Of a stretch of 32,000 bases of DNA, positions 7,489 through 21,003 are shown in pieces. A program made the position numbers and the translations under genes. The DNA comes from Myxococcales bacterium. Its GTDB lineage: Bacteria > Myxococcota_A > Polyangia > Polyangiales > Polyangiaceae. A model generated the notes under the pieces. That model was not told where the DNA came from. It worked only from the letters and a program-made list of their open reading frames with translations, and searched no databases. Every line of letters starts with the position of its first letter. Within the stretch, counting starts at the first letter, position 1. The stretch spans positions 1 through 32,000 of the forward strand of contig SXNL01000208.1 of NCBI GenBank assembly GCA_005777185.1, given 5' to 3'.

Positions 7489-7642
7489 TGAATTCAAACG
7501 ATGTAGTCATTCGCATTTCGCTCGTTCAATGACGATTGTTTGACCCGGACCCGACGCCCGCCGATCGCAAAATACCGACAAAAACGGCGCGAAATGCTCG
7601 TTTCATCGAGCGGCTCGGAGAAACCTGTGGATAACCTTGTGG

Positions 7643-7704
7643 AAAAAATATTTGTTTGCCCATGCGTTTTTTTTCTTGCGAGGCAGGGCGACCTGTTGCA
7701 TAAA
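7643..7704 (+). promoter_or_regulatory. Candidate strong sigma70-type promoter: A/T-rich UP-like tract + TTGCGA-N17-CATAAA
   Basis: TTGCGA at 7676-7681, a 17-nt spacer, and CATAAA at 7699-7704. It is preceded by an A/T-rich tract (ggaaaaaatatttgtttgcccatgcgttttttttc). Direct count gives 22/60 G+C for 7621-7680, against a flanking background that is very GC-rich. A 9-bp inverted repeat (atgcgtttt 7662-7670 / aaaacgcat 7702-7710) brackets the core promoter. The -10 lacks the terminal T, so confidence is modest. Confidence 0.35.
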
Positions 7705-7710
7705 ACGCAT

Positions 7711-10036
7711 CACGAAGTTCGCGGCACATCTCCCGCGAGCTCTCGATCGTAGAAGCCACCGGGGCGCTGCGGTCGGGGTCGGGGTTTCACGGGCAACACC
7801 CGTGGGGCACCGGACCTGACCGGTCCTTCCAGACCTGCTTGGGACGTCAATTCCAGGCGGGCGAGGAGGAAGAAAGGCGCTCGTACTCCAACCCCACCAC
7901 GGCTTGCCGCGGCGGGGCGCTTGCAAGGCCCATCTCAAGCATGTCTCGCTCTGGACAGCGAGCATGTGGGCGGCGTGAGCGGGAGGCCGACCGGGGCGGC
8001 GCGCAGGAGCGATCCTTCGTGCCCGTCCTCGTCGCTTGTGGTGGAAGGCACCTCGGTGCTCTGGAAAGCGTCGCCCTTCGCGGGGCGCCGCCGGAAGGTG
8101 CACCTCGTCTGGCCTGCTCCACGCGTCGCATCATCTCCAAGTCGCGGCGCGAGAGACCATGCCAGAGACCCGGGTGTCCGGAGACCGCCAAGGAGGGGAA
8201 CCTTCGTCGGCCATCGCCATGCGATGGCAACCTGCGTGCGTCCGACAAACCGGTCGCGCATACGGTGACGGGTCCTTCGCTTGGTCCTCCGACCTTCACG
8301 CCTTTTCGCCGGGCATTTGCCTGGCCGACCAGGCGGTGTCGCACACGTCAAGCCACCTTCCGTGCGCGTCGGCGAAAGCCGCCGGGCGGGGCAGGTGGGG
8401 AAAACGGGAGCGAGGCCGTCCGCTCGAAGGCGCGTCGCCCACACGCGCGGAGCACTCCCGAAAGGGGGTCGCACCGAGCGTCCGAGAAGAGGGTCGCGGC
8501 CCTCGTCCCGTGGGGATTCATGAGCTCGATCGGGTAATGCCCGTAAGTCGTGTGATTGCAGAAACGAACAGGCGGCATCTGGCCTCAAATAAGCCCGCGA
8601 AACGCACCTCGAAAAAGGTGGCAGGCGCGAGTGAACGGTGGCCTAGCCGGTCTCCTTTTCCCCGGGCAACCAGGGGCGAGGGCATCGGCGAAACGATGTC
8701 CGGATGCTCACTCTGCGGCGGTTCCGCCTCGGAGTTCAGCAGAGGTTCCAGGCCAGCGTGACAAGCGTTGGCTGGCGGTCGGCTCATCGAGAGGTGCGCC
8801 GGTCGCGTGCCCCGCGTATCGTCTCCCCTCTCGAGGTGGCGGCGGTTTCGACGGGAGCATGTGAAGGGTCCCTGTTCGCGGAAGGTGTCTCGGTTCGCCA
8901 CAAGGCGTCCCCTTTTCACGAGGTGGCGCTGGCGGCGGGCTTGGCCGTCTCCCTCGTTTCGAGCTGCGCAGCCCTCCCGAAGGGGGTGGCGCAGAGTGGG
9001 TCGAGCGAAGGCTCCACCCCCTTGGGACGTAGGCGGGCCGGTGACGGAGGCATCAGAGGTTCGATCGCGCTGTCGCCGTGGGAACAACACGCCCACGCCT
9101 CCTGGGTCCCGGTTCGTCCGGCCCCGCGAGGATCTACGCTCCAGCGCAATCCACCGAAGCGTTCATCGTGGCGTGAAACCACGGTCTACCTCGGGTCCTC
9201 GCAAGAGGCGGCAAGTCATGCCCCAGAGCACGGCGGGTCGACATCCCGGGAACACACGAGATGCGGGTTTTCGTCATGACATGTCTGGATGGCAGAAGTC
9301 GGTCCGTGACATCCTGGCAGGCAACGCCCTCCGCGAAAGCGATGGGAAACGCGCCTGTCTAGCCCGAAGGAAGCCTCCCCCCCAGCTGACGCAGTGGGGC
9401 GAGCGCGGAGAGAGGGCGAATCGGTGTTGCTCGGCGGCGCTCTCGAGGCAACTCGAGACACGTCGACCTCTCAGGTGAGCGATCACCTGCGAGACGAGGC
9501 ACGACGGAAGGCACTCAGGTCGCACGTACGCGCTACCCTAAAAAGTTGGCGTGTGGCGACGGCCTCTATCTCGCGGTCAACGGCCCCTCCCCCGTCCCTC
9601 ACGGGATCTGCGGAGGATCGCCCAGCGATTCGGGTCGGCTTGGAGCCGAGCTCGGACGTGCCGCGGGACGAACACGAGTGTCAGAGGGCGGAGATACCCG
9701 GGTAACGGCTCGACAACGCTCCCAAAAAGGGCGACGGCGGGTCCGGCATCCTCGGCGCTGAAAAGGCGTCGGTGAGAGGTGCGCTGCGGGTGTGGTCGTC
9801 CGAAGCTGGCGATTCGCGAATAGCGACGCTGACCCCGCTTCCTCCCTATCCGCGCGAACGGATGGGTCGAAGGGCGGCATCCAACGGTGACGAGGATGCG
9901 TGCAGGCCGGAGAGCGGCCTCACGATTGTCCGATGGCTGGCTCCAGAGGCCAGACCGAGCGCGTAAAAGCACTCCCAGCGGAAAGCAACTTCTCTCGAGG
10001 GCGACCGGGTGACCGGCTTCGCCCTCGAGCTTTTTT
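7711..10036 (+). ncRNA. Candidate large (about 2.3 kb) structured non-coding RNA of unknown class; the 5' boundary is approximate
   Basis: There is no credible CDS. ORFs of at most 241 aa occur in all six frames and overlap one another. Their translations are Arg/Ser/Gly/Pro/Trp-rich with no motifs, and many codons end in A/T, unlike the neighbouring genes. The region is bounded by the promoter-like segment upstream and a strong + strand intrinsic terminator at 9994-10036. It holds many stable hairpins, several with GNRA loops: 8370-8381 (cggc GAAA gccg), 8455-8468 (GAAA), 8980-9023 (10-bp stem), 9441-9458 (7 bp, GCAA), 9472-9489 (7 bp, GCGA), 10005-10016 (GTGA). Confidence 0.35.
9994..10036 (+). 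terminator. Rho-independent terminator (+ strand)
   Basis: ctcgagggcga (9994-10004) pairs with tcgccctcgag (10019-10029), an 11-bp stem. It is extended by an inner ccgg-GTGA-ccgg stem-loop (10005-10016) and followed by c + TTTTTT (10031-10036). The opposite strand has no comparable T-run after the stem, so orientation is +. Confidence 0.8.
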
Positions 10037-12720: not shown

Positions 12721-13692
12721 TTGTCTTCGCGTCCTCGCCACCCGGGCCTCCTCGCCGCCGCGCTCGCGCTCGCGCTGGCCTTCGCCGCGGGCAACGCCGA
12801 CGCCTTCTGCCGGTCCGTCACGTGCCGCAGCACGGAGTCGAAGCCCTGCGCGACGGACGCGAACGGCTGCGGGACGAGCGGCCACAAGCTCTTCTGGAAG
12901 ACCTCGTGCATCCAGTTCAACCTCCACAAGGCCGGCACGCAGCAGGTGGCCATCGAGCTGGCCCGCAAGGCCGTGACGAGGTCGTTCCAGGCCTGGAGCG
13001 CCGTCGACTGCGGCGGCGGCAAGCAGGCCACCATGACGTTCTCCCCCGGCGAGGACGTGAGCTGCAGGGTCAGCCAGTACAACAGCAAGGCGCCGAACGT
13101 GAACGTGATCTTCTTCCAGGACGACAACTGGAAGTACCGGGGCGTGGACGGCACGCTCGCCAAGACGAGCGTCACGTACAACGACGACACGGGAGAGATC
13201 TACGACGCCGACATCGAGGTCAACAGCGCGAACAACCTCGTCACCGTCACGGACGACGCCGCGGCGACCAAGTACGATCTCCAGGCGATCCTCACCCACG
13301 AGGTCGGCCACTTCATCGGGATCGCGCACACGCAGGACGCGTCGGCGACGATGTTCCCCAGCTATTCGCCTGGATCCGTCACCCAGCGCGTGCTCGCGCC
13401 CGACGACAAGAAGGCGGTCTGCGCGGCGTACCCGCCCGATCGCGTCGCGACGTGCGATCCCACACCGCGCGGCGGCTTCTCGGGGACCTGCACGGAAACG
13501 GGCGGCGCTGGCTCGTCCTCGTCGTCCTCTTCTTCCGGCTGCGCGGTCGCGCCCGAAGCCGAGGCGAGCCGGGACGCGTCCGGAGGTACGACCATCCCGT
13601 TCGTGCTCGGGGCGCTCGGGCTCGGTTGGCTCGTCCGCCCGCGATCCAGGAAGCGTGAGCCCGCCTCGACTGCAAGGGAGACCGTCCGATGA
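12721..13692 (+). CDS. Secreted matrixin-like (M10 metzincin) zinc metalloprotease with MYXO-CTERM-like C-terminal tail
   Basis: Signal peptide GLLAAALALALAFAAGNADA. Zinc site HEVGHFIGIAH (HExxHxxGxxH) plus a Met-turn, ATMFPSY. The C-terminus is a poly-Ser run, then GC, then a spacer, a hydrophobic helix (IPFVLGALGLGWLV) and a basic tail (RPRSRKRE), which resembles the MYXO-CTERM tripartite sorting tail. The TTG start at 12721 is the only in-frame start upstream of the signal peptide. Confidence 0.85.
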   Translation: MSSRPRHPGLLAAALALALAFAAGNADAFCRSVTCRSTESKPCATDANGCGTSGHKLFWKTSCIQFNLHKAGTQQVAIELARKAVTRSFQAWSAVDCGGGKQATMTFSPGEDVSCRVSQYNSKAPNVNVIFFQDDNWKYRGVDGTLAKTSVTYNDDTGEIYDADIEVNSANNLVTVTDDAAATKYDLQAILTHEVGHFIGIAHTQDASATMFPSYSPGSVTQRVLAPDDKKAVCAAYPPDRVATCDPTPRGGFSGTCTETGGAGSSSSSSSSGCAVAPEAEASRDASGGTTIPFVLGALGLGWLVRPRSRKREPASTARETVR

Positions 13693-14960
13693 AGCCCGCC
13701 CTCCGCGCCATGAACCTCCTCGCCGCCATCTTCCCCCCCGTCGCAGCGCTGGCCCTCGCGGGCGGCCTCGCGGCCTCGTGCGCGTCCACGGCGGCGGCTC
13801 CGCCGTCGAACGACCGCATCTGCACGCCGGGCAACTTCGTGGTGTGCCTGTGCGCCGACGCGGTGACGCAGGGGACCAAGCTGTGCCACACCGACGGGAA
13901 GTCGTTCGGCACCTGCCTCCTCGCAAACGAGAAGCCGTGCCCCGCGGGGGAGCTCGTGGACGCAGGCGCGGCCGTCGACGGCGGCTTCAACCTGGCGGAC
14001 AAGTGCACCGGTGTGTCGGTGGCCGTCGACGCCAACAAGGACAAGACGCTCGAGGGCGACACCACGCCCGCCGTCGACGACTACGAGGGCAAGGCGGGCG
14101 CGTGCGCCGTCGGCAAGCAGAGCCCCGACGACGTGTACGAGCTGCTCCCGACGGCGAGCGGGCCGCTCACCGCCACCGTGAAGGGCGCGGGCGGGTTCGA
14201 TCCGACGATCTACCTCCGCGCGAGCTGCGCCGACACGGCCTCCCAGCTCGCGTGCAGCGAGACGACGGGCCCGAACGGCACCGAGACGGTGAGCACCAAC
14301 GTGATCACCGCGCAGAAGTACTACCTCGTCGTCGATGGCAAGACGGGCAGCAAGGGCAAGTACTCGCTCACCCTGTCGCTCAAGAGCGGGACCTTCTGCG
14401 GCGACGGCAAGGTCCAGGCGGGCGAGGCCTGCGATGACGGGAACAAGACCGCGGACGACGGGTGCTCGAACGACTGCCAGAGCTTCACCGGCGATCCGCC
14501 GTCGATGAACGGGTGCCCCGGGCACCCGGTCGACGTCTGGCCGGGGAAGGTCGTGACGGGGACGGGGAGCAACACGGCCGGCGCGAACACGTTCACCAAC
14601 GGCGACGGCACGTGCACCAAGGCGGGCAACAACGGCGCGCCGGAGCACGTGTACGCGGTCACCGCGCACAAGAACGGCACGATGGTCGTCACGCTCACGG
14701 GCGCCTCGTTCACGAGCGGGCATCCGATGATCCTCGTGCGCCGGACGTGCACCGATCCCAACTCGTGGGAGGAGCCGCCCGTGAACACGTGCTCTCAGCC
14801 CGGAGATCCCATCAGGATGTGCGCGAACTGCAACGGCGTCGGCCCGCCGAGCGACGAGAAGGCCGCGTTCCCCGTCGTCGACGGCACGACGTACACCGTG
14901 GCGGCCAGCGGGGCGCTGCTCGGCAAGGGGACGTACACGCTGAGCTTCGAGATCAAGTGA
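13689..14960 (+). CDS. Probable lipoprotein: Cys-rich N-terminus, two PPC-like beta-sandwich modules flanking one Myxococcus Cys-rich repeat
   Basis: ATG 13689 overlaps the upstream TGA (ATGA). The signal ends in LAASC. CGDGKVQAGEACDDGNKTADDGCSNDC matches the Myxococcus cysteine-rich (DUF4215-type) repeat. DVYELLPTASGPLTATVKG...YYLVVDGKTGSKGKYSLTLSL, and a second ..HVYAVTAHKNGTMVVTL...TTYTVAASG...GTYTLSFEI, resemble pre-peptidase C-terminal (PPC) domains. Confidence 0.8.
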   Translation: MKPALRAMNLLAAIFPPVAALALAGGLAASCASTAAAPPSNDRICTPGNFVVCLCADAVTQGTKLCHTDGKSFGTCLLANEKPCPAGELVDAGAAVDGGFNLADKCTGVSVAVDANKDKTLEGDTTPAVDDYEGKAGACAVGKQSPDDVYELLPTASGPLTATVKGAGGFDPTIYLRASCADTASQLACSETTGPNGTETVSTNVITAQKYYLVVDGKTGSKGKYSLTLSLKSGTFCGDGKVQAGEACDDGNKTADDGCSNDCQSFTGDPPSMNGCPGHPVDVWPGKVVTGTGSNTAGANTFTNGDGTCTKAGNNGAPEHVYAVTAHKNGTMVVTLTGASFTSGHPMILVRRTCTDPNSWEEPPVNTCSQPGDPIRMCANCNGVGPPSDEKAAFPVVDGTTYTVAASGALLGKGTYTLSFEIK

Positions 14961-15739
14961 TGAAGCCGATGTCTTCTCGCGCGGCGGTGGTCCTCTCCGT
15001 GCTCGGCGCCGTGGTCGCGTGCTCCTCGTCCCCGACGAAGAGCACGACACCCTGCAAGCCGAAGCTGACGGTCCTCTGCAAGTGCCAGGACGGCAGCGAG
15101 GGCCAGCAGACCTGCGAGGACGACGGCAGCAAGTTCAGCCCGTGCGATCCGTGCATACCGCCTGATCCGCTCCCGGACGCCGGCGTCGATCCCATCGACG
15201 CGGCCGACTCGGGACCGCCCGGCTGCGGCGACGGGATCGTCCAGGAACCGGAGCAGTGCGACGACAAGAACAAGACCTCGGGCGACGGGTGCAGCGCCAA
15301 GTGCGTGCTCGACGGGAACCCGGACTCGGCGCGCGCGTGTCCGGGCATGCAGGTGCACGTCTGGGACTCCGTGGTCGAGTACTCGGGGACCACGACCGTG
15401 TACGCGCAGACCTTCCGGGCGAGCCCCTCGTGCGGGGTCGACGGCGGGGCGACGTCGTCGGGCTCGACGTCCCCCGACCGCGTCTTCAAGGTGACGCCGC
15501 ACCGCCCCGGCACGCTCAAGGTCGAGACGCTGAACGCGACCTTCGACACGATGATCTACGCGGCCGAGACCTGCGCCCCCGATCTCGTCCACAAGGGCTG
15601 GTGCGCCAACGCGAAGGCGGGGAACGCCGGTGAGGTCCTCACCTTCCCCGTGTCGAGCGAGATCGCCTACTTCGTCGTCGTGGACGGGGGCGCCATCACC
15701 GTGCAGGGCAACTTCACCATCCGGTTCTCGGTCTTCTGA
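14960..15739 (+). CDS. Probable lipoprotein, shorter paralogue of the preceding gene (Cys-rich N-terminus + Myxococcus Cys-rich repeat + one PPC-like module)
   Basis: ATG 14960 overlaps the upstream TGA by 1 nt. The lipobox is VVACSS. CGDGIVQEPEQCDDKNKTSGDGCSAKC is the Cys-rich repeat. ..RVFKVTPHRPGTLKVETL...IAYFVVVDGG...GNFTIRFSV is PPC-like. The N-terminal PCKPKLTVLCKCQDGSEGQQTCEDDGSKFSPC parallels ICTPGNFVVCLCADAVTQGTKLCHTDGKSFGTC in the upstream gene. Confidence 0.8.
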   Translation: MKPMSSRAAVVLSVLGAVVACSSSPTKSTTPCKPKLTVLCKCQDGSEGQQTCEDDGSKFSPCDPCIPPDPLPDAGVDPIDAADSGPPGCGDGIVQEPEQCDDKNKTSGDGCSAKCVLDGNPDSARACPGMQVHVWDSVVEYSGTTTVYAQTFRASPSCGVDGGATSSGSTSPDRVFKVTPHRPGTLKVETLNATFDTMIYAAETCAPDLVHKGWCANAKAGNAGEVLTFPVSSEIAYFVVVDGGAITVQGNFTIRFSVF

Positions 15740-15772: not shown

Positions 15773-16840
15773 GTGAAGTTCGTCGATTCGGTCGAGATCA
15801 GGGCGATCGCCGGGAGCGGCGGGAACGGCGCGGTCGCCTTCCTGCGCGAGAAGTTCGTGCCGTTCGGCGGGCCGTCCGGCGGCGACGGCGGCAAGGGCGG
15901 CGACGTCGTCCTCGAGACGGATCCGGGCAAGTCGTCCCTCCTCGACCTGACCCACGAGAAGGTCCTGCGCGGCACGGCCGGCGAGAACGGACAGGGCAAG
16001 GACTGCTACGGCCGCGCGGGAAAGCCGTACGTCTGCCGGGTGCCGGTGGGCACGCAGGTCTTCGACGCGCTCACGGGCGAGCTCGTCGCCGACCTCTCGC
16101 GCGACGACGCGCGCTTCGTCGCCGCAGCGGGAGGCCGCGGCGGCCGGGGTAACATCCACTTCGCGACCGCAACCGACCGCGCGCCGCGACGCGCCGAGCC
16201 CGGACAGCCCGGCCAGGAGCGCGCCCTCCGGCTCGAGCTCAAGGTGATGGCGGACGTCGGGCTTCTGGGCTTCCCGAACGTGGGAAAATCGACCTTCATC
16301 CGCGCGTGCTCCGGCGCGCGCCCGAAGGTGGCGGACTATCCGTTCACGACGCTCATACCCCACCTCGGCGTCGTGAGACTGGACGACGAGCGGAGCTTCG
16401 TCCTCGCCGACATCCCGGGCCTCATCCCGGGCGCCGCCGACGGCGCCGGCCTCGGCGTGCGCTTCCTGAAGCACGTGGAGCGGACGCGCGCGCTCCTCCA
16501 CCTCGTCACGGTCGACCCCGGCGAGGATCGCGATCCGGTCGCCGACCACGCGCGGCTCATGCGGGAGCTGCGGCGGTTCGATCCAGCGCTCGCGAAGCGG
16601 CCGCAGATCGTCGCGATGTCGAAGGGCGATCTCCCGGACGTGCAGGAGGCGTATCGACGCGTGAAGCCCCTCTTCGCGAAGAAGAAGATCCGGCTCCGAC
16701 TCCTCTCGGCCGCGACCCACGAGGGTGTCGCCGCCGTGCTCGCCGATCTCGCGAAGCTGGTCGAGAAGGAGCGAGCCCTCCAGAAGCGAGCGCGCCCGGC
16801 GGACAGGCCCTCGCGTGCGAGGGGCCCGAAGGGCGCGTGA
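15773..16840 (+). CDS. obg: GTPase Obg/CgtA
   Basis: GTG start. The N-terminus has the Obg fold signature MKFVDSVEIRAIAGSGGNGAVAFLREKFVPFGGPSGGDGGKGGDVVLE. G-domain motifs present: GFPNVGKST (G1), DIPGLI (G3), and a non-canonical G4-position motif, MSKGD. Confidence 0.97.
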   Translation: MKFVDSVEIRAIAGSGGNGAVAFLREKFVPFGGPSGGDGGKGGDVVLETDPGKSSLLDLTHEKVLRGTAGENGQGKDCYGRAGKPYVCRVPVGTQVFDALTGELVADLSRDDARFVAAAGGRGGRGNIHFATATDRAPRRAEPGQPGQERALRLELKVMADVGLLGFPNVGKSTFIRACSGARPKVADYPFTTLIPHLGVVRLDDERSFVLADIPGLIPGAADGAGLGVRFLKHVERTRALLHLVTVDPGEDRDPVADHARLMRELRRFDPALAKRPQIVAMSKGDLPDVQEAYRRVKPLFAKKKIRLRLLSAATHEGVAAVLADLAKLVEKERALQKRARPADRPSRARGPKGA

Positions 16841-17847
16841 GCGACGCGACGGAGGCGCCGACCCCGCGCAGGCTCGCGCAGGCGCGACGTGAGGGGGACG
16901 GGGGCGCCACCTCGGCCGCCTCCCACGCCGCCGCGCTCGTGACCGTCGCGCTGCTCCTGCCCGCCGCCGTCGTCACCCTCGCGGAGACGACGAACCGGGG
17001 GCTCCGCGATGCCTTCGCGGCGATCGCGGCGCCTGCGCCGAGGGTCGTCTTCGAGGCCGCCACGCTCGCGAAGCCCCTCCTCGCCGTGTCGGCCCCCTTG
17101 CTCGTGGCCGTGGCCGTGACGAGCCTCATGGCGACGCTCACGCAGACGGGAGGCCGCGTCGCCGTGGCCAGGCTCGCCCCGCGCATGTCGCGGCTCTCGC
17201 CCGCCGGGGGGGCCCGCCGGTTCTTCTCGGCGTCGAGGCTCCTCGGGGCGGCGCGCGCCGTGACGGCGAGCGTCGTCGTCGGCGCGATCGCGTGGCTCAC
17301 CTTGCACGATCACGCCGCGGACCTCGCGCGATCGGCGGGCGAGCCCCGATACGCGTGGGCCCTCGGCCTCTCGCTCGGGGGCGCCGTGCTCCTCCGCGGC
17401 GCGGCGGCCGCGGTCGCCCTGGGTGTCGTCGACCTCGCGGTGACGAGGTGGGCGTGGATGAACCGGCTCAGGATGACGCGCGAGGCGGTACGGCGCGACC
17501 TCCGGGAGGCGGAGGGAGACCCCGATGTCCGGACCGCGCGGCGCAGGGCACACGCGGATCTCCTGCGGGGCGCGCGGCTGGCGGACGTGGCCGCCGCGAG
17601 CCTCCTCGTCACCGGGCGCTCGGGTGCGTGCGCGCTCGCGTACGAAGGCGACGACGCGGGCGCGGCGCCCCTCGTCGTGGCGTCCGGCGTCGCGTCGGAG
17701 CTCGAGCGCGTCGCGAGGGAGCGCGGCGTGCCCATCGTGGCGGACGACGCCCTCGCGCGCGTGCTCCTGGGACTCGAGATCGGTCAGGAGATTCCGGAGT
17801 CGCTCTACGAGGACGTCGCCCTCGCCTTCCGCGACGCGCGCGGGTGA
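16837..17847 (+). CDS. FlhB/YscU/SctU-family type III export-apparatus switch protein homologue, NPTH autocleavage motif degenerate
   Basis: GTG 16837 overlaps the obg TGA (GTGA). The N-terminus TEAPTPRRLAQARREGD parallels the FlhB motif EKTEKPTPKRLxEARxKG. Four hydrophobic helices follow. The linker MTREAVRRDLREAEGDPDVRTARRRAH parallels MSKQExKxExKExEGDPxxK. The C-domain has ..APLVVASGVASELERVARERGVPIVADDALARVLL...GQEIPESLYEDVA. At the NPTH position the sequence reads LLVT-GRSG-ACALAY (GRSG = 17614-17625). Confidence 0.85.
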   Translation: MSDATEAPTPRRLAQARREGDGGATSAASHAAALVTVALLLPAAVVTLAETTNRGLRDAFAAIAAPAPRVVFEAATLAKPLLAVSAPLLVAVAVTSLMATLTQTGGRVAVARLAPRMSRLSPAGGARRFFSASRLLGAARAVTASVVVGAIAWLTLHDHAADLARSAGEPRYAWALGLSLGGAVLLRGAAAAVALGVVDLAVTRWAWMNRLRMTREAVRRDLREAEGDPDVRTARRRAHADLLRGARLADVAAASLLVTGRSGACALAYEGDDAGAAPLVVASGVASELERVARERGVPIVADDALARVLLGLEIGQEIPESLYEDVALAFRDARG

Positions 17848-17848
17848 G

Positions 17849-20281
17849 TCACACCGCCGAGCGCAGCCGCTGGGCCTCCTCCCCGCGCGACACGCCGGCG
17901 AAGAGCTTCGAGAGGAACACGAGGCTCGCCTGAATGCCGCGACGGTCGCCCCGCTCCCTCGCTCGCGCGAGGGCATCGAGGCCCTCGAGGAGCGCGTCGT
18001 CGGGGCGGCCGGCCGCGGCCAGGGCCACCGCCAGTGCGAGAGACGTCTGGCAGCGCAGCGCCACGTCCTCGGGACCGAGCCCCTGGCGCGCCTTCCTCAG
18101 CACGCGCAACGCGTCGCCGATCTCGCCGCGGTTCAGACGGGCCATCGCCTGCATCCGGTCCGCGAACAGGCGCTTCTCGCCCGTCGCGCTGAGGCCGTCG
18201 AGCCACTTCTCGAGCCCGGTCGTGTCCTCGGACAGGAGGGCGTTCTTCGCCAGCTCGGAGAGGCGCTGCACGAGCCCCACCTCGCCGACGCTCGAGGGCG
18301 AGGCCGTCCAGTCCTTCGGGGCGATGACCTCCAGTGGCACGGCCTGCTCCACGGTGGGCGGCTCGGACTCAGGATCCCCCGCCCGGCCCGCGTCTCGCGT
18401 GGACGCGGGCGGCGACGCGATTCTCGGCCCGGTCGACGCGCTCGAGGGCTCCCCCCGGTCCGTCGTGGGGGGAATGGTGAACAGGTCGACCTTCGTGTCC
18501 GCGGCGGAGACCGTGGACGCGAGCTGCGCGCGCGTGCGCACCTCGCACGTCGGATCCTCGCGGCGAGCGAACGCCAGGAGCGACGACGCTGCCTGCTCGA
18601 GCCCGAGCCGCTGCGCCTCGACCGCCGCGCCGAGGGCGAGCCGCGACGCGCGCGCGCTGTCGCCCGCCCCCGCCGCGTGCCACGCGGCCTCGGCCTTGCC
18701 GAGAGGTCCCTCGCGCTCCTCGAGCTCGTCGCAGATCGCGCGGTGGATGGCCTGTCGGGTCCCGTCGTCGAGGATCTCCGACAGCGTGTCCCTGTGCGTG
18801 CGCGACGGGAGCCCCACCCAGTCGACCTGCGGTGTGTCGAGCCAGCGGGCGCGTGAGAGGTCGGCGACGAGCCCGTCGGAGGTCGCGTCGGGATCCGCCC
18901 GCTGGAGGACGCGGAAGAGGCGCGAGGTCGACGTCTCGCCCCCGAGGAGCGCGACGGCGCACAGGAGGACCTTCGCGTGCACCGGGAGGTCCAGCGCGCG
19001 CTCCGCGATCCAGTGCGTCGCGGGGTGAGGCTTACCCTTGCCCGAAGCGCGCGTCCTCGGCTCCGCGCGATCCGTGTACCATGCAATTTTCCCGGTCGCG
19101 GTGCCGTGCGCGATGGCCTCGACGATCCCGAGCGGCGCGTAGGAGCCGAGCCGCGCGAAGCGAGCGCAGCCCTTCGCGTCGAGGAGCCCGCCCGTGGCCG
19201 CCTTAGCGAGCTCCTCGGCGCTCTCGCGGGTCATGGGCCGGAGCTCGATCTCCGGCCCCGCCTCGAGGTGCGCCACGGCCGCCGGAGGTGACGTCGTCGC
19301 GTCCAGTCTCACGACGAAGCCGAAGGCCCGCTCGGCGCCCTTGATCGCCCCCGCACACGCTTCGAGGCTCGCGACGTCCACATCCTGGGCATCGTCGACG
19401 AGGAGCGTGCCCGACGACGCCGCCTTCTTCGGCCAGAGGAAGGCGGTGATGATCTTCGACGCGACCGGGATGGGGATCCCCTCGCCCCGGACGAGCTGCT
19501 CGACCTCGCGCGCCAGCTCGAGGAGGAACGGGTCCACCTCGTCGGACGCCGCGCGGGCGATGGCGCGTCGGAGCGCGCCGAGCGGCTCCATCCCGCTGCC
19601 GGAGGGCGACAGCACGAGGGCATGAGAGGGTCGCACCGACCCGGCGACCTCGCGGAGGAACCGGGTGCCTCCGAGCCCCGGATCGGCGCGGAGCACGGAC
19701 AGCGTCCCTGGCATCCAGAGGATCGCCTTCGGATCCTCGACGGTCACGAGCGCAGGCGTCTTCAGCTTGGCGACACGGTTCTCGGCGTCGCGTCGCCACG
19801 GCTGCAGCGTGTCCAGGAGCGCGCCGTGGACCTGGACGCCGCTCCTCCGCGCGTGGACTTTCCTCAGCGTGAGGAGGCGGTTCGCCTTGTACGCGCGGAG
19901 GCTGTCCCCGACGACGACATCCCCCGGCCCGCCGAGCTCGGACAGCGCCTCGGCGGCGACCAGGGCGAGCCCCCACGAGAGCTCTCCGTACGCGCCTTCC
20001 TCCGACACCGGACCGAGCTCCCCCTGCGCGACACCGCAAGCGTAGGGCTCCTCCCCCGGGAACGTCTCCTCGCCCGGCGAGCGGGCGAGGCCGATGATGT
20101 CCTCGAACGACTCCGGGGCGAGCGAGAACGAGACGACGCTGCCGCCCCAAGCCACGAGCGCGCCGCCCCGCGCCTCGACCCGCGCGATGAGCGCCCTTGC
20201 GCGCTCCACGTGCCCCCGCCGGACGAGCTCCGACGCGGGCCGCAACCCGAGTCGAAACGACGCGATGATCCTCTCGGCCAA
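17849..20281 (-). CDS. Large regulatory-type protein: degenerate cyclase-homology-like N-terminus, STAND/AAA-like NTPase module with degenerate Walker A, C-terminal TPR-like helical repeats
   Basis: 810-aa ORF with strongly G/C-ending codons. The P-loop position reads RADPGLGGTRFL, with the Lys of GxxxxGK[ST] replaced by Gly. The Walker B-like motif is TLLVDDAQDVD. The C-terminal third is Ala/Leu-rich and helical (..MQAMARLNRGEIGDALRVLRKARQG...LALAVALAAAGRPDDALLEGLDALARARE..). TTG start at 20281, 17 nt after the pspA stop. Confidence 0.65.
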   Translation of the reverse strand: MAERIIASFRLGLRPASELVRRGHVERARALIARVEARGGALVAWGGSVVSFSLAPESFEDIIGLARSPGEETFPGEEPYACGVAQGELGPVSEEGAYGELSWGLALVAAEALSELGGPGDVVVGDSLRAYKANRLLTLRKVHARRSGVQVHGALLDTLQPWRRDAENRVAKLKTPALVTVEDPKAILWMPGTLSVLRADPGLGGTRFLREVAGSVRPSHALVLSPSGSGMEPLGALRRAIARAASDEVDPFLLELAREVEQLVRGEGIPIPVASKIITAFLWPKKAASSGTLLVDDAQDVDVASLEACAGAIKGAERAFGFVVRLDATTSPPAAVAHLEAGPEIELRPMTRESAEELAKAATGGLLDAKGCARFARLGSYAPLGIVEAIAHGTATGKIAWYTDRAEPRTRASGKGKPHPATHWIAERALDLPVHAKVLLCAVALLGGETSTSRLFRVLQRADPDATSDGLVADLSRARWLDTPQVDWVGLPSRTHRDTLSEILDDGTRQAIHRAICDELEEREGPLGKAEAAWHAAGAGDSARASRLALGAAVEAQRLGLEQAASSLLAFARREDPTCEVRTRAQLASTVSAADTKVDLFTIPPTTDRGEPSSASTGPRIASPPASTRDAGRAGDPESEPPTVEQAVPLEVIAPKDWTASPSSVGEVGLVQRLSELAKNALLSEDTTGLEKWLDGLSATGEKRLFADRMQAMARLNRGEIGDALRVLRKARQGLGPEDVALRCQTSLALAVALAAAGRPDDALLEGLDALARARERGDRRGIQASLVFLSKLFAGVSRGEEAQRLRSAV

Positions 20282-20298: not shown

Positions 20299-21003
20299 CT
20301 ACACGCGGATGCGCTTCTTCAGGGCGGCGAGCTCGTCGTCCAGGTCGCTCGGGGTCTTGCCCTCCCCGCCGCCCTTCATGTCGCGCTCGAGGTCGCGGAA
20401 CTTCGCCTCGAGGTCCTCGCCGCGGCGACCCTTGCCGAGCGCCTCCTCGACCTCGTTCATGGCGAGGCCCTCCTGCTCCCGGCCCTCGATCTTCTCCTCC
20501 ATCTGACGGAAGTTGTCGAACGCCGACGACCCAGCCTTGCTCCCGAGGTCCGTCGACCCTGCGCGGGCCTGCTGCGCGCGGCTGATGATGGTGCCCTTGC
20601 GCATCTTCAGCTCCTCGAGCTTGTCCTCCATGCGGTCGAGCTCCTGCTTCATCTTGAGGGCGGTGTCGCGCTGCTCGACGCGCGCCGTCTCGGCGGACTC
20701 GAGCTCCTGGTTGACGCGCTTCTTCTGCTTGAGGGCGTCACGGGCGAGCGCCTCGTCGTCGCTCTTGAGGGCGAGCTCGGCGCGCTTCTCCCACTTCTCG
20801 GCCTCGGCGCGGAGATCGTCGGCCTTCTTCTTCAGCATCTTCTCCGCGGCGATGGCCGAGATGACGTCCTGCCGGCCCTCCTTGAGCTGCGCGGCCATCT
20901 CCTCGAGGTTGAGCTCGACCAGCTTCTTGTCGTCCTCCGCCTTGTCGAGCATCGAGTTGACGTTGCTCGAGATCACCTTGCCCATGCGGTCGAAAATGCC
21001 CAT
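20299..21003 (-). CDS. pspA: PspA/IM30 (phage-shock protein A / Vipp1) family protein
   Basis: ATG 21003 with a GGAGG 7 nt upstream. MGIFDRMGKVISSNVNSMLDKAEDDKKLVELNLEEMAAQLKEGRQDV... is the canonical PspA N-terminus and coiled coil. The track ORF start at 21048 adds 15 unlikely residues. Confidence 0.95.
   Translation of the reverse strand: MGIFDRMGKVISSNVNSMLDKAEDDKKLVELNLEEMAAQLKEGRQDVISAIAAEKMLKKKADDLRAEAEKWEKRAELALKSDDEALARDALKQKKRVNQELESAETARVEQRDTALKMKQELDRMEDKLEELKMRKGTIISRAQQARAGSTDLGSKAGSSAFDNFRQMEEKIEGREQEGLAMNEVEEALGKGRRGEDLEAKFRDLERDMKGGGEGKTPSDLDDELAALKKRIRV

Follow-up and report, generated by a model that had tools for sequence, protein, structure and literature searches.

Downstream of the gene for the GTPase Obg, a stretch of myxobacterial DNA (called the window here; 32,000 nucleotides of contig SXNL01000208.1, assembly GCA_005777185.1, Polyangiaceae) carries a gene for a full-length homologue of FlhB/SctU, the export-switch protein of flagella and injectisomes. 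In this homologue the autocleavage motif Asn-Pro-Thr-His (NPTH) is replaced by Gly-Arg-Ser-Gly (GRSG). The reading which we favour, and to which we would give an even chance, is that the protein is functional and by nature does not cleave itself, and that it belongs to a clade of stand-alone FlhB/SctU paralogues specific to this lineage, which Polyangia-type myxobacteria pass on vertically at a constant place among housekeeping genes. As a SctU-like subunit it would stay uncleaved throughout and would probably serve a reduced export gate whose genes lie elsewhere. The coordinates of the features discussed are collected in Table 1.

A preliminary description of the window, made from the DNA letters without database searches, had proposed that the product is collinear with FlhB and SctU over its full length. 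This is borne out by the Pfam family PF01312 (Bac_export_2; FlhB/HrpN/YscU/SpaS), which aligns residues 3-328 with profile positions 2-329 of 335, i.e. end to end (E 1e-60, 206.2 bits vs. a cutoff of 24.4). The NCBIfam equivalog models of FlhB (TIGR00328, 173 bits vs. a cutoff of 349.25) and SctU (TIGR01404, 166 bits vs. 358) score the protein about equally and in both cases far below their cutoffs, and the best match among the PDB sequences is Salmonella FlhB (E 2e-28). An AlphaFold2 model made with the alignment of the clade (mean predicted local distance difference test score 88.6) consists of four long helices arranged as two hairpins, a linker helix and a beta/alpha C-domain with the beta1-loop-beta2 arrangement. 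With Foldseek the membrane part matches FlhB of the FliPQR-FlhB complex (6s3l_K) and the C-domain matches the C-domains of EscU, YscU and FlhB (TMt 0.65-0.80, root-mean-square deviation ~2 Å; 3bzs, 3bzt, 6z0w, 2jli), the top matches being structures of uncleaved N-to-A/D and P-to-A mutants of EscU and YscU.

Region by region, the clade is conserved in much the same way as canonical FlhB. This includes the FlhB_L loop, with a relative conservation of x0.97 in the orphans vs. x1.09 in canonical FlhB, which in canonical FlhB contacts and wraps around the FliQ subunits (PMC7064499). The linker (CN) is the most conserved stretch besides the NPTH strand in both sets. In Salmonella FlhB early substrates dock into a pocket formed by A286, P287, A341 and L344 (PMC9307174). 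Judged from the alignment, the putative equivalents of these pocket residues are retained in the window protein, and P278 is invariant among orphans with and without the Asn-Pro pair.

The position of the motif replacement is clear. The phmmer alignment with Salmonella FlhB puts T-G-R-S-G on T-N269-P-T-H272, three MAFFT alignments (A1, A2, A3) concur, and the GRSG reported earlier at the NPTH column is thus confirmed. An intact NPTH elsewhere in the protein was considered and rejected, since the alignments put GRSG unambiguously at the motif column. In the FlhB/SctU family the side chain of the catalytic Asn of NPTH performs the cleavage (PMC7064499). By this established family chemistry the GRSG protein, which has no such Asn to attack the peptide bond, is not expected to cleave itself. 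Compared with its closest relatives it has in addition a 1-residue deletion immediately after GRSG, a second deletion further downstream and an exchange at the V-P site of the clade (Table 1).

We also examined whether the gene itself is sound. Its G+C content at the first, second and third codon position (0.79, 0.59 and 0.94; window 71%) follows the same signature as that of the neighbouring obg, and the frame is therefore a real coding sequence. Its homologues share the start residue (M-S-D/E-K-T-E). Its GTG start codon (16837) and the obg stop codon (TGA, 16838-16840) together form a 4-nucleotide overlap of the two genes, as had been described from the sequence, and the parent contig (ENA ERZ27257034:k141_835590, 89.7 kb with positions up to 89688, of which the window is a reversed section) has the identical two genes with the identical overlap in its public gene calls. 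The upstream partner is a genuine obg (417 bits vs. the TIGR02729 cutoff of 280.25; Pfam GTP1_OBG and MMR_HSR1), to which the flhB-like gene is translationally coupled in this genome. A sequencing error at the obg junction had been named as a possible objection. That such an error, or a faulty assembly, created GRSG or the overlap has a practically negligible probability. An independent Logan assembly, L002 (SRR8894379), has the flhB-like gene with 100% identical DNA, and assemblies from three additional samples or runs match the flanks at 99.9-100% identity, which rules out sequencing errors at the junction and at the motif; moreover the change is made up of four substitutions and in-frame deletions, not of a frameshift.

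The window protein belongs to a distinct clade. Neighbour-joining trees, which carry no support values, recover the orphans as one monophyletic group including the window protein, and a hidden Markov model of the orphans scores it 67 bits higher than the corresponding model of canonical FlhB. For the synteny survey we scanned genome and metagenome collections and searched the neighbours with tblastn. The recurrent order in many genome and metagenome contigs is obg, the flhB-like gene and, convergent to these, an uncharacterised gene for ~800-900 amino acids (homologous to the 810-residue gene of the window) preceded by pspA. Adjacency to obg and/or pspA was found in L003, L085-L103, L110-L113, L170, L172/L173 and the contig of P0060, adjacency to pspA in L003, L085, L095, L097, L102, L103, L110-L113, L168 and L173, and the 4-nucleotide overlap with obg also in the relatives L003 and L170. 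The window gene fits this order, following obg directly and facing the pspA operon tail to tail. In the metagenome-assembled genome (MAG) Myxococcales bacterium 68-20 (NCBI) the conserved order extends over M10, two DUF4215 genes, obg, flhB-like, the uncharacterised gene, pspA, lpdA and E1. The named genome matches of the orphans are distant Polyangiaceae and Myxococcales MAGs with short contigs. The association with obg, described at first as an unexpected property of this one locus, is therefore real and not singular: positional orthologues occur in many myxobacterial MAGs and contigs, and the obg linkage is a conserved feature of the lineage.

Some loci deviate from this order. In the subgroup with GRPR at the motif (L168, 2-1381; L171, 3-1319) the upstream gene is not obg; by eye it is a nitroreductase/BluB-like gene fused to a CobT-like (nicotinate-nucleotide-dimethylbenzimidazole phosphoribosyltransferase-like) part, and in L168 pspA is still convergent downstream. 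Another NPTH-less flhB-like gene with YGRD at the motif (P0083, L169 7072-8070) lies on a 16-kb contig with ~30 small open reading frames, almost no Pfam matches (one DUF1643) and neither obg nor pspA, a context which looks like a phage or mobile element.

Export gate genes are not found next to these genes. Searching with FliP, FliQ, FliR and FlhA references (tblastn), we found them in none of ~40 orphan loci, with flanks of up to 10 kb covered and the full 10 kb available on both sides in several of these loci; in the same screen gate genes are adjacent in most of the other, canonical FlhB loci. Pfam scans, which took in all plausible window genes, and tblastn detected no FliP/Q/R, FlhA or other family of type III secretion systems (T3SS) or flagella in the window, and over 46.6 kb of the parent contig (10549-57179 of 89688) the public gene calls list none either. 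A T3SS or flagellar cluster close by is thus rejected for these stretches. The earlier statement that no gate genes are nearby holds for the window and the 46.6 kb, and the designation as an orphan stands locally, over this part of the contig and not genome-wide.

NPTH had been called invariant. This is not the case in the orphan clade, in which N-P is absent from 28 of 82 non-redundant members (NP-, as opposed to the 54 NP+ members which keep it); among canonical relatives NPxx is kept in 126 of 133. When the representatives that score better with the orphan than with the canonical model are counted, 35 are without N-P and 32 have it. Many of the nearest relatives of the window protein are also without the motif, and the replacements differ (DSAR, GPA, DAPF, SPTP, GVRH, GRPR, GRAG, YGRD and others). 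Fitch parsimony on the neighbour-joining tree calculated with the motif region masked gives at least 8 changes of motif state. In this masked tree the window protein falls together with NP+ members that are linked to obg, and a sister relationship with P0006 (GRPR) seen in the first tree is gone, which was probably due to long-branch attraction; the motif loss in the window is treated as independent. As to the proportion, the list of representatives was ordered by resemblance to a query that is itself NP-, and lineages that evolve fast are over-represented after clustering at 50% identity, whereas the pattern-based locus scans are biased against NP- members. From these opposing biases the true NP- fraction should lie somewhere below one half.

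The loss of NPTH is tightly coupled to the loss of the distant V-P motif. V304 is present in 91% of the NP+ vs. 4% of the NP- members and P305 in 94% vs. 14%, counted without phylogenetic correction; the site corresponds to P316/P317 of Salmonella FlhB. Other positions (Q103, D199, R210, A266, L267, P278 and L310) are conserved to 96-100% in NP+ and NP- members alike. Pairs of NP+ orphans have ratios of nonsynonymous to synonymous substitution rates (dN/dS) of 0.12-0.20. The NP- pair L168/L171, with GRPR in both and 72% amino acid identity, has a dN/dS of 0.18 overall and 0.13 in the C-domain (proportion of synonymous differences pS 0.57 vs. nonsynonymous pN 0.17). Purifying selection in this pair means that non-cleaving versions can be stably maintained.

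A candidate for the gate was found elsewhere in Polyangia. Directly after the ribosomal-protein/secY/rpoA/rplQ block there is a minimal cluster FliO-SctR-SctS-SctT...SctU-galU (L080, L150, L152, L174; also L126) with the order PilZ, FliO-like, SctR, SctS, SctT, several small uncharacterised genes, SctU, galU and priA. The SctR of this cluster is 70-92% identical over >100 sequence clusters. Its SctU paralogue, whose gene follows FliO-SctR-SctS-SctT at a distance of 3-5 kb and lies right before galU, has an NPDH or NPEH motif, falls among the sister groups of the orphan clade in the neighbour-joining tree and has a dN/dS of 0.13-0.16 (NPDH form), like that of the NP+ orphan pairs. The named matches of the SctR search are "Polyangia bacterium" MAGs only, and Myxococcales bacterium 68-20 is not among the best 120 listed. 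The cluster looks like an undescribed reduced T3SS-derived module outside the Cystobacterineae.

On the reading we favour, the protein would insert into the inner membrane with its two helical hairpins and present the FlhB_L loop and the N-terminus to a SctRST/FliPQR-type gate encoded elsewhere, the only candidate seen being the FliO-SctR-SctS-SctT...SctU(NPDH) cluster next to rpoA-rplQ. The hydrophobic docking pocket of the C-domain would be kept. With the loss of the Asn-Pro scissile site and of the co-varying V-P, we infer that the protein would remain a single uncleaved chain equivalent to a locked early, unswitched state. Myxobacterial T3SS-like systems without needle or hook have been described (PMC3459982, PMC10849154), and by analogy the switch may be unnecessary in such systems. 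A needle-less and hook-less system would have no length-controlled structure on which to switch, the switch surface may thus be dispensable, and this would explain why members of the clade have repeatedly lost the motif, with selection still acting on the remainder of the protein.

Several observations speak against this reading, and the first of them concern the window protein itself. An exhaustive search of 1.84 billion representatives gave no full-length relative above 46% identity. At equal divergence of Obg (60-73% identity) other orphan pairs are 51-64% identical and the window protein only 37-44.5%, and this excess divergence means that the window lineage evolved faster. Of the 92 positions conserved to at least 80% in NP+ members the window protein keeps 65 (~71%), which is also compatible with relaxed constraint. 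The evidence for selection comes from clade relatives, the window protein being without a close one. One may ask whether the clade is a remnant of an ancestral T3SS and the window gene is relaxed and heading for loss, with its frame open only through the rarity of stop codons in 71% GC DNA. The accelerated divergence relative to Obg, the loss of both NPTH and V-P, the 1- and 3-residue deletions, the fewer clade-conserved positions kept by the NP- group in every region and the frequency of spurious long open reading frames in the window fit such a decay. We nevertheless regard it as distinctly unlikely: the gene is full-length, collinear and without frameshift, its GC3 in frame is as high as given above and the AlphaFold model is confident. 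The strongly conserved positions that it keeps are concentrated in the structural core; their number is similar to that in other NP- members, with losses centred on the motif strand and the C-domain. In addition the low dN/dS values of NP+ members and of the independent NPTH-less lineage, in which the replacement GRPR is itself conserved, argue against decay.

The remaining points concern the gate and the neighbours. No SctV/FlhA or ATPase gene was found within 10 kb on either side of the minimal gate cluster, so this "gate" may itself be unable to export. A canonical gate binds a single FlhB, and the cluster comes with a SctU paralogue of its own. The putative link between the orphans and SctRST within one genome is drawn from conservation patterns only. 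The coupling to obg may simply mirror long-standing vertical synteny, and as the wider synteny is broadly conserved between the window and the MAG 68-20, being next to obg and pspA does not have to imply a functional link.

Another explanation, to which we assign a modest probability, is that the orphan has been exapted independently of any gate as an inner-membrane protein with the C-domain as a protein-binding module, for example in Obg-dependent control of growth or ribosomes or in a PspA/IM30 membrane-stress module. T3SS genes are never adjacent in the ~40 orphan loci, the co-directional adjacency or overlap with obg is conserved, the tail-to-tail adjacency to the pspA operon persists even where the upstream gene is cobT-like (L168, L171), and the switch motif is repeatedly dispensable with purifying selection continuing in its absence. 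All this would suit a role outside secretion. Such a role would, however, leave it unexplained that conservation is distributed as in canonical FlhB, down to the FlhB_L loop and the N-terminal motif, which are known for their contacts to FliQ and the gate entrance, and that the early-substrate pocket is retained; the general conservation of the locus further weakens any argument from the neighbours.

More speculatively, and unlikely in our estimation, Polyangia-type myxobacteria might possess a radically reduced type III-derived exporter with a FliO-SctRST core beside rpoA-rplQ, without SctV or ATPase genes nearby and with interchangeable SctU subunits (the gate-linked NPDH form and the obg-linked cleaving and non-cleaving forms), the expression of the orphan being tied to Obg as a GTPase of growth rate and ribosome assembly; or else the orphan might be a new membrane regulator outside secretion. 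If the reduced exporter with interchangeable SctU is true, autocleavage is not intrinsic to SctU function.

Table 1. Features of the flhB-like locus (positions in the window unless a locus is named; A1-A3, MAFFT alignments)
Feature	Position	Strand	Basis
obg, Obg/CgtA GTPase of 355 amino acids, upstream partner	15773..16840	+	TIGR02729, Pfam
Orphan FlhB/SctU-like gene, 336 amino acids	16837..17847	+	PF01312 match, GC3, AlphaFold model
GTGA overlap, GTG start of flhB-like gene on TGA stop of obg	16837..16840	+	direct reading of the sequence
N-terminal cytoplasmic motif ATEAPTPRRLAQARREGD, residues 4-21	16846..16899	+	kept in orphan clade and canonical FlhB
First helical hairpin, transmembrane helices (TM) 1 (residues 26-63) and 2 (74-104)	16912..17148	+	AlphaFold model; 6s3l_K
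FlhB_L-type loop, residues 105-131, GGRVAVARLAPRMSRLSPAGGARRFFS	17149..17229	+	motif L.P..SRL.P..G....FS kept
Second helical hairpin, TM3 (132-158) and TM4 (170-210)	17230..17466	+	AlphaFold model
Linker (CN) region including RLRMTREAVRRDLREAEGDPDVR	17467..17601	+	conservation profile
G-R-S-G replacing N-P-T-H, residues 260-263	17614..17625	+	phmmer and MAFFT alignments A1, A2, A3
A277-P278, equivalent to Salmonella FlhB A286-P287, putative early-substrate docking pocket	17665..17670	+	phmmer alignment
3-residue deletion vs. closest relatives, ASG---VA vs. ASGEGDLA	17686..17691	+	alignments A2, A3
D304-A305 replacing V-P of the clade motif DVPLARAL	17746..17751	+	alignments
A328...F331, equivalent to Salmonella FlhB A341 and L344, putative docking pocket	17818..17829	+	phmmer alignment
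Convergent gene for 810 amino acids, conserved neighbour	17849..20281	-	homologues between flhB-like and pspA elsewhere
pspA/IM30 gene, upstream of the 810-residue gene	20299..21003	-	PF04012 E 1e-39; TIGR02977-like
Minimal gate cluster, examples	L174 9497-16407; L080 2072-8354		

The convergent neighbour of the flhB-like gene encodes a protein which has no match in Pfam, NCBIfam or the PDB sequences. Its homologues, 32-65% identical depending on the segment aligned, lie between pspA and the flhB-like gene in many loci, and it appears to be PspA-associated. The stop codons of the two convergent genes are one base apart (TGAgTCA, 17845-17851), and similarly tight tail-to-tail spacing or overlap is seen in L003, L170 and L171. 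A scan for promoters and terminators around the locus gave nothing above chance and no terminator between the convergent stops; the obg-flhB-like and pspA-810 transcripts would have to run into each other.

The Pfam scan of the window identified an H+-pyrophosphatase, a methyltransferase-like protein, a Ser/Thr kinase and a trypsin-like protease, as well as a radical-SAM/SPASM enzyme, an M10 peptidase and two DUF4215 proteins, followed by obg, the flhB-like gene and pspA; further genes encode a lipoamide dehydrogenase, an E1 dehydrogenase, a HEAT-repeat protein, ABC permeases and a Cys/Met pyridoxal phosphate enzyme. Directly upstream of obg, after the M10 metallopeptidase, two secreted Cys-rich DUF4215 proteins are encoded in tandem (13689-15739), and Myxococcales bacterium 68-20 (L173) has the same trio ahead of its obg. 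A stretch of ~2.4 kb (7500-9900), bounded by the radical-SAM gene and the gene called next, contains no called gene and shows no periodicity of G+C by codon position; its G+C content is 0.52-0.70, the mean of the window being 0.71. Neither an Rfam match (gathering thresholds) nor tandem repeats were found there, short repeats being at chance level, and the stretch may be the remains of a gene or a long non-coding element.

Autocleavage at NPTH is regarded as characteristic of the FlhB/SctU family and as a precondition for the switch in substrate specificity. The orphan clade is in this respect a natural experiment on the purpose of cleavage, on the switch surface and on the role of the rest of the protein where no hook or needle is measured. 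In the searchable literature we found no description of a stand-alone or naturally NPTH-less full-length FlhB/SctU in myxobacteria. The findings point to an undescribed remnant of a reduced export gate in Polyangia, a group previously considered to be without the myxobacterial T3SS*, and in organisms without flagella it is misleading to annotate such genes, as is done at present, as "flagellar biosynthesis protein FlhB" or "SctU".

When compared with known systems, the window protein shares with FlhB and SctU (YscU, EscU, SpaS, HrcU) the TE.PTP.RL motif, two transmembrane hairpins, the FlhB_L loop, the RMT..EV+.E.+E.EGDP linker and the alpha/beta C-domain, with the early-substrate pocket residues conserved. 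It differs in having no N-P-T-H and in not being encoded with SctRSTV or FliPQR-FlhA, the gene being embedded instead in a housekeeping locus in which it overlaps obg. It is thus a member of the PF01312 superfamily without the NPTH motif, the equivalog score and the linkage to an apparatus expected of a working FlhB/SctU equivalog. The stand-alone FlhB relatives of the TIGR00789 type (flhB_rel, YlqH) also lie outside flagellar operons, but they correspond to the C-domain and have no membrane domain; the window protein is full-length and matches this model weakly and partially (45.6 bits vs. a cutoff of 117).

With the non-flagellar T3SS of Myxococcales (the short and long "Myxo" loci; T3SS* of Myxococcus xanthus) the gene has the myxobacterial host and a reduced, needle-less non-flagellar context in common. 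Those systems are multi-gene loci of the Cystobacterineae, defined by clustered SctRSTUV, ATPase, inner ring and rod genes (PMC3459982), whereas the window gene is single and of the Polyangia type, none of these core genes being present around it in the window and the 46.6 kb of contig, and the orphan clade is separate from gate-linked SctU copies. The SctU of the minimal Polyangia cluster comes from the same taxonomic neighbourhood, is likewise encoded at a housekeeping locus and likewise deviates at the third motif position, but it retains N-P..H and its gene follows sctRST at 3-5 kb, neither of which applies to the window gene.

The engineered mutants FlhB N269A, YscU N263A, EscU N262A/P263A and SpaS N258A likewise have no scissile Asn-Pro. 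Non-cleaving FlhB/SctU mutants assemble yet fail to switch (PMC7064499, PMC4620466, PMC9307174), and they also export early substrates (PMC4620466, PMC9307174). These are laboratory point mutations in complete systems which cause switching defects. In the orphan clade, by contrast, the loss is natural and recurrent, is accompanied by co-varying or compensating changes (loss of V-P, small deletions), and in at least one lineage selection still maintains the protein.

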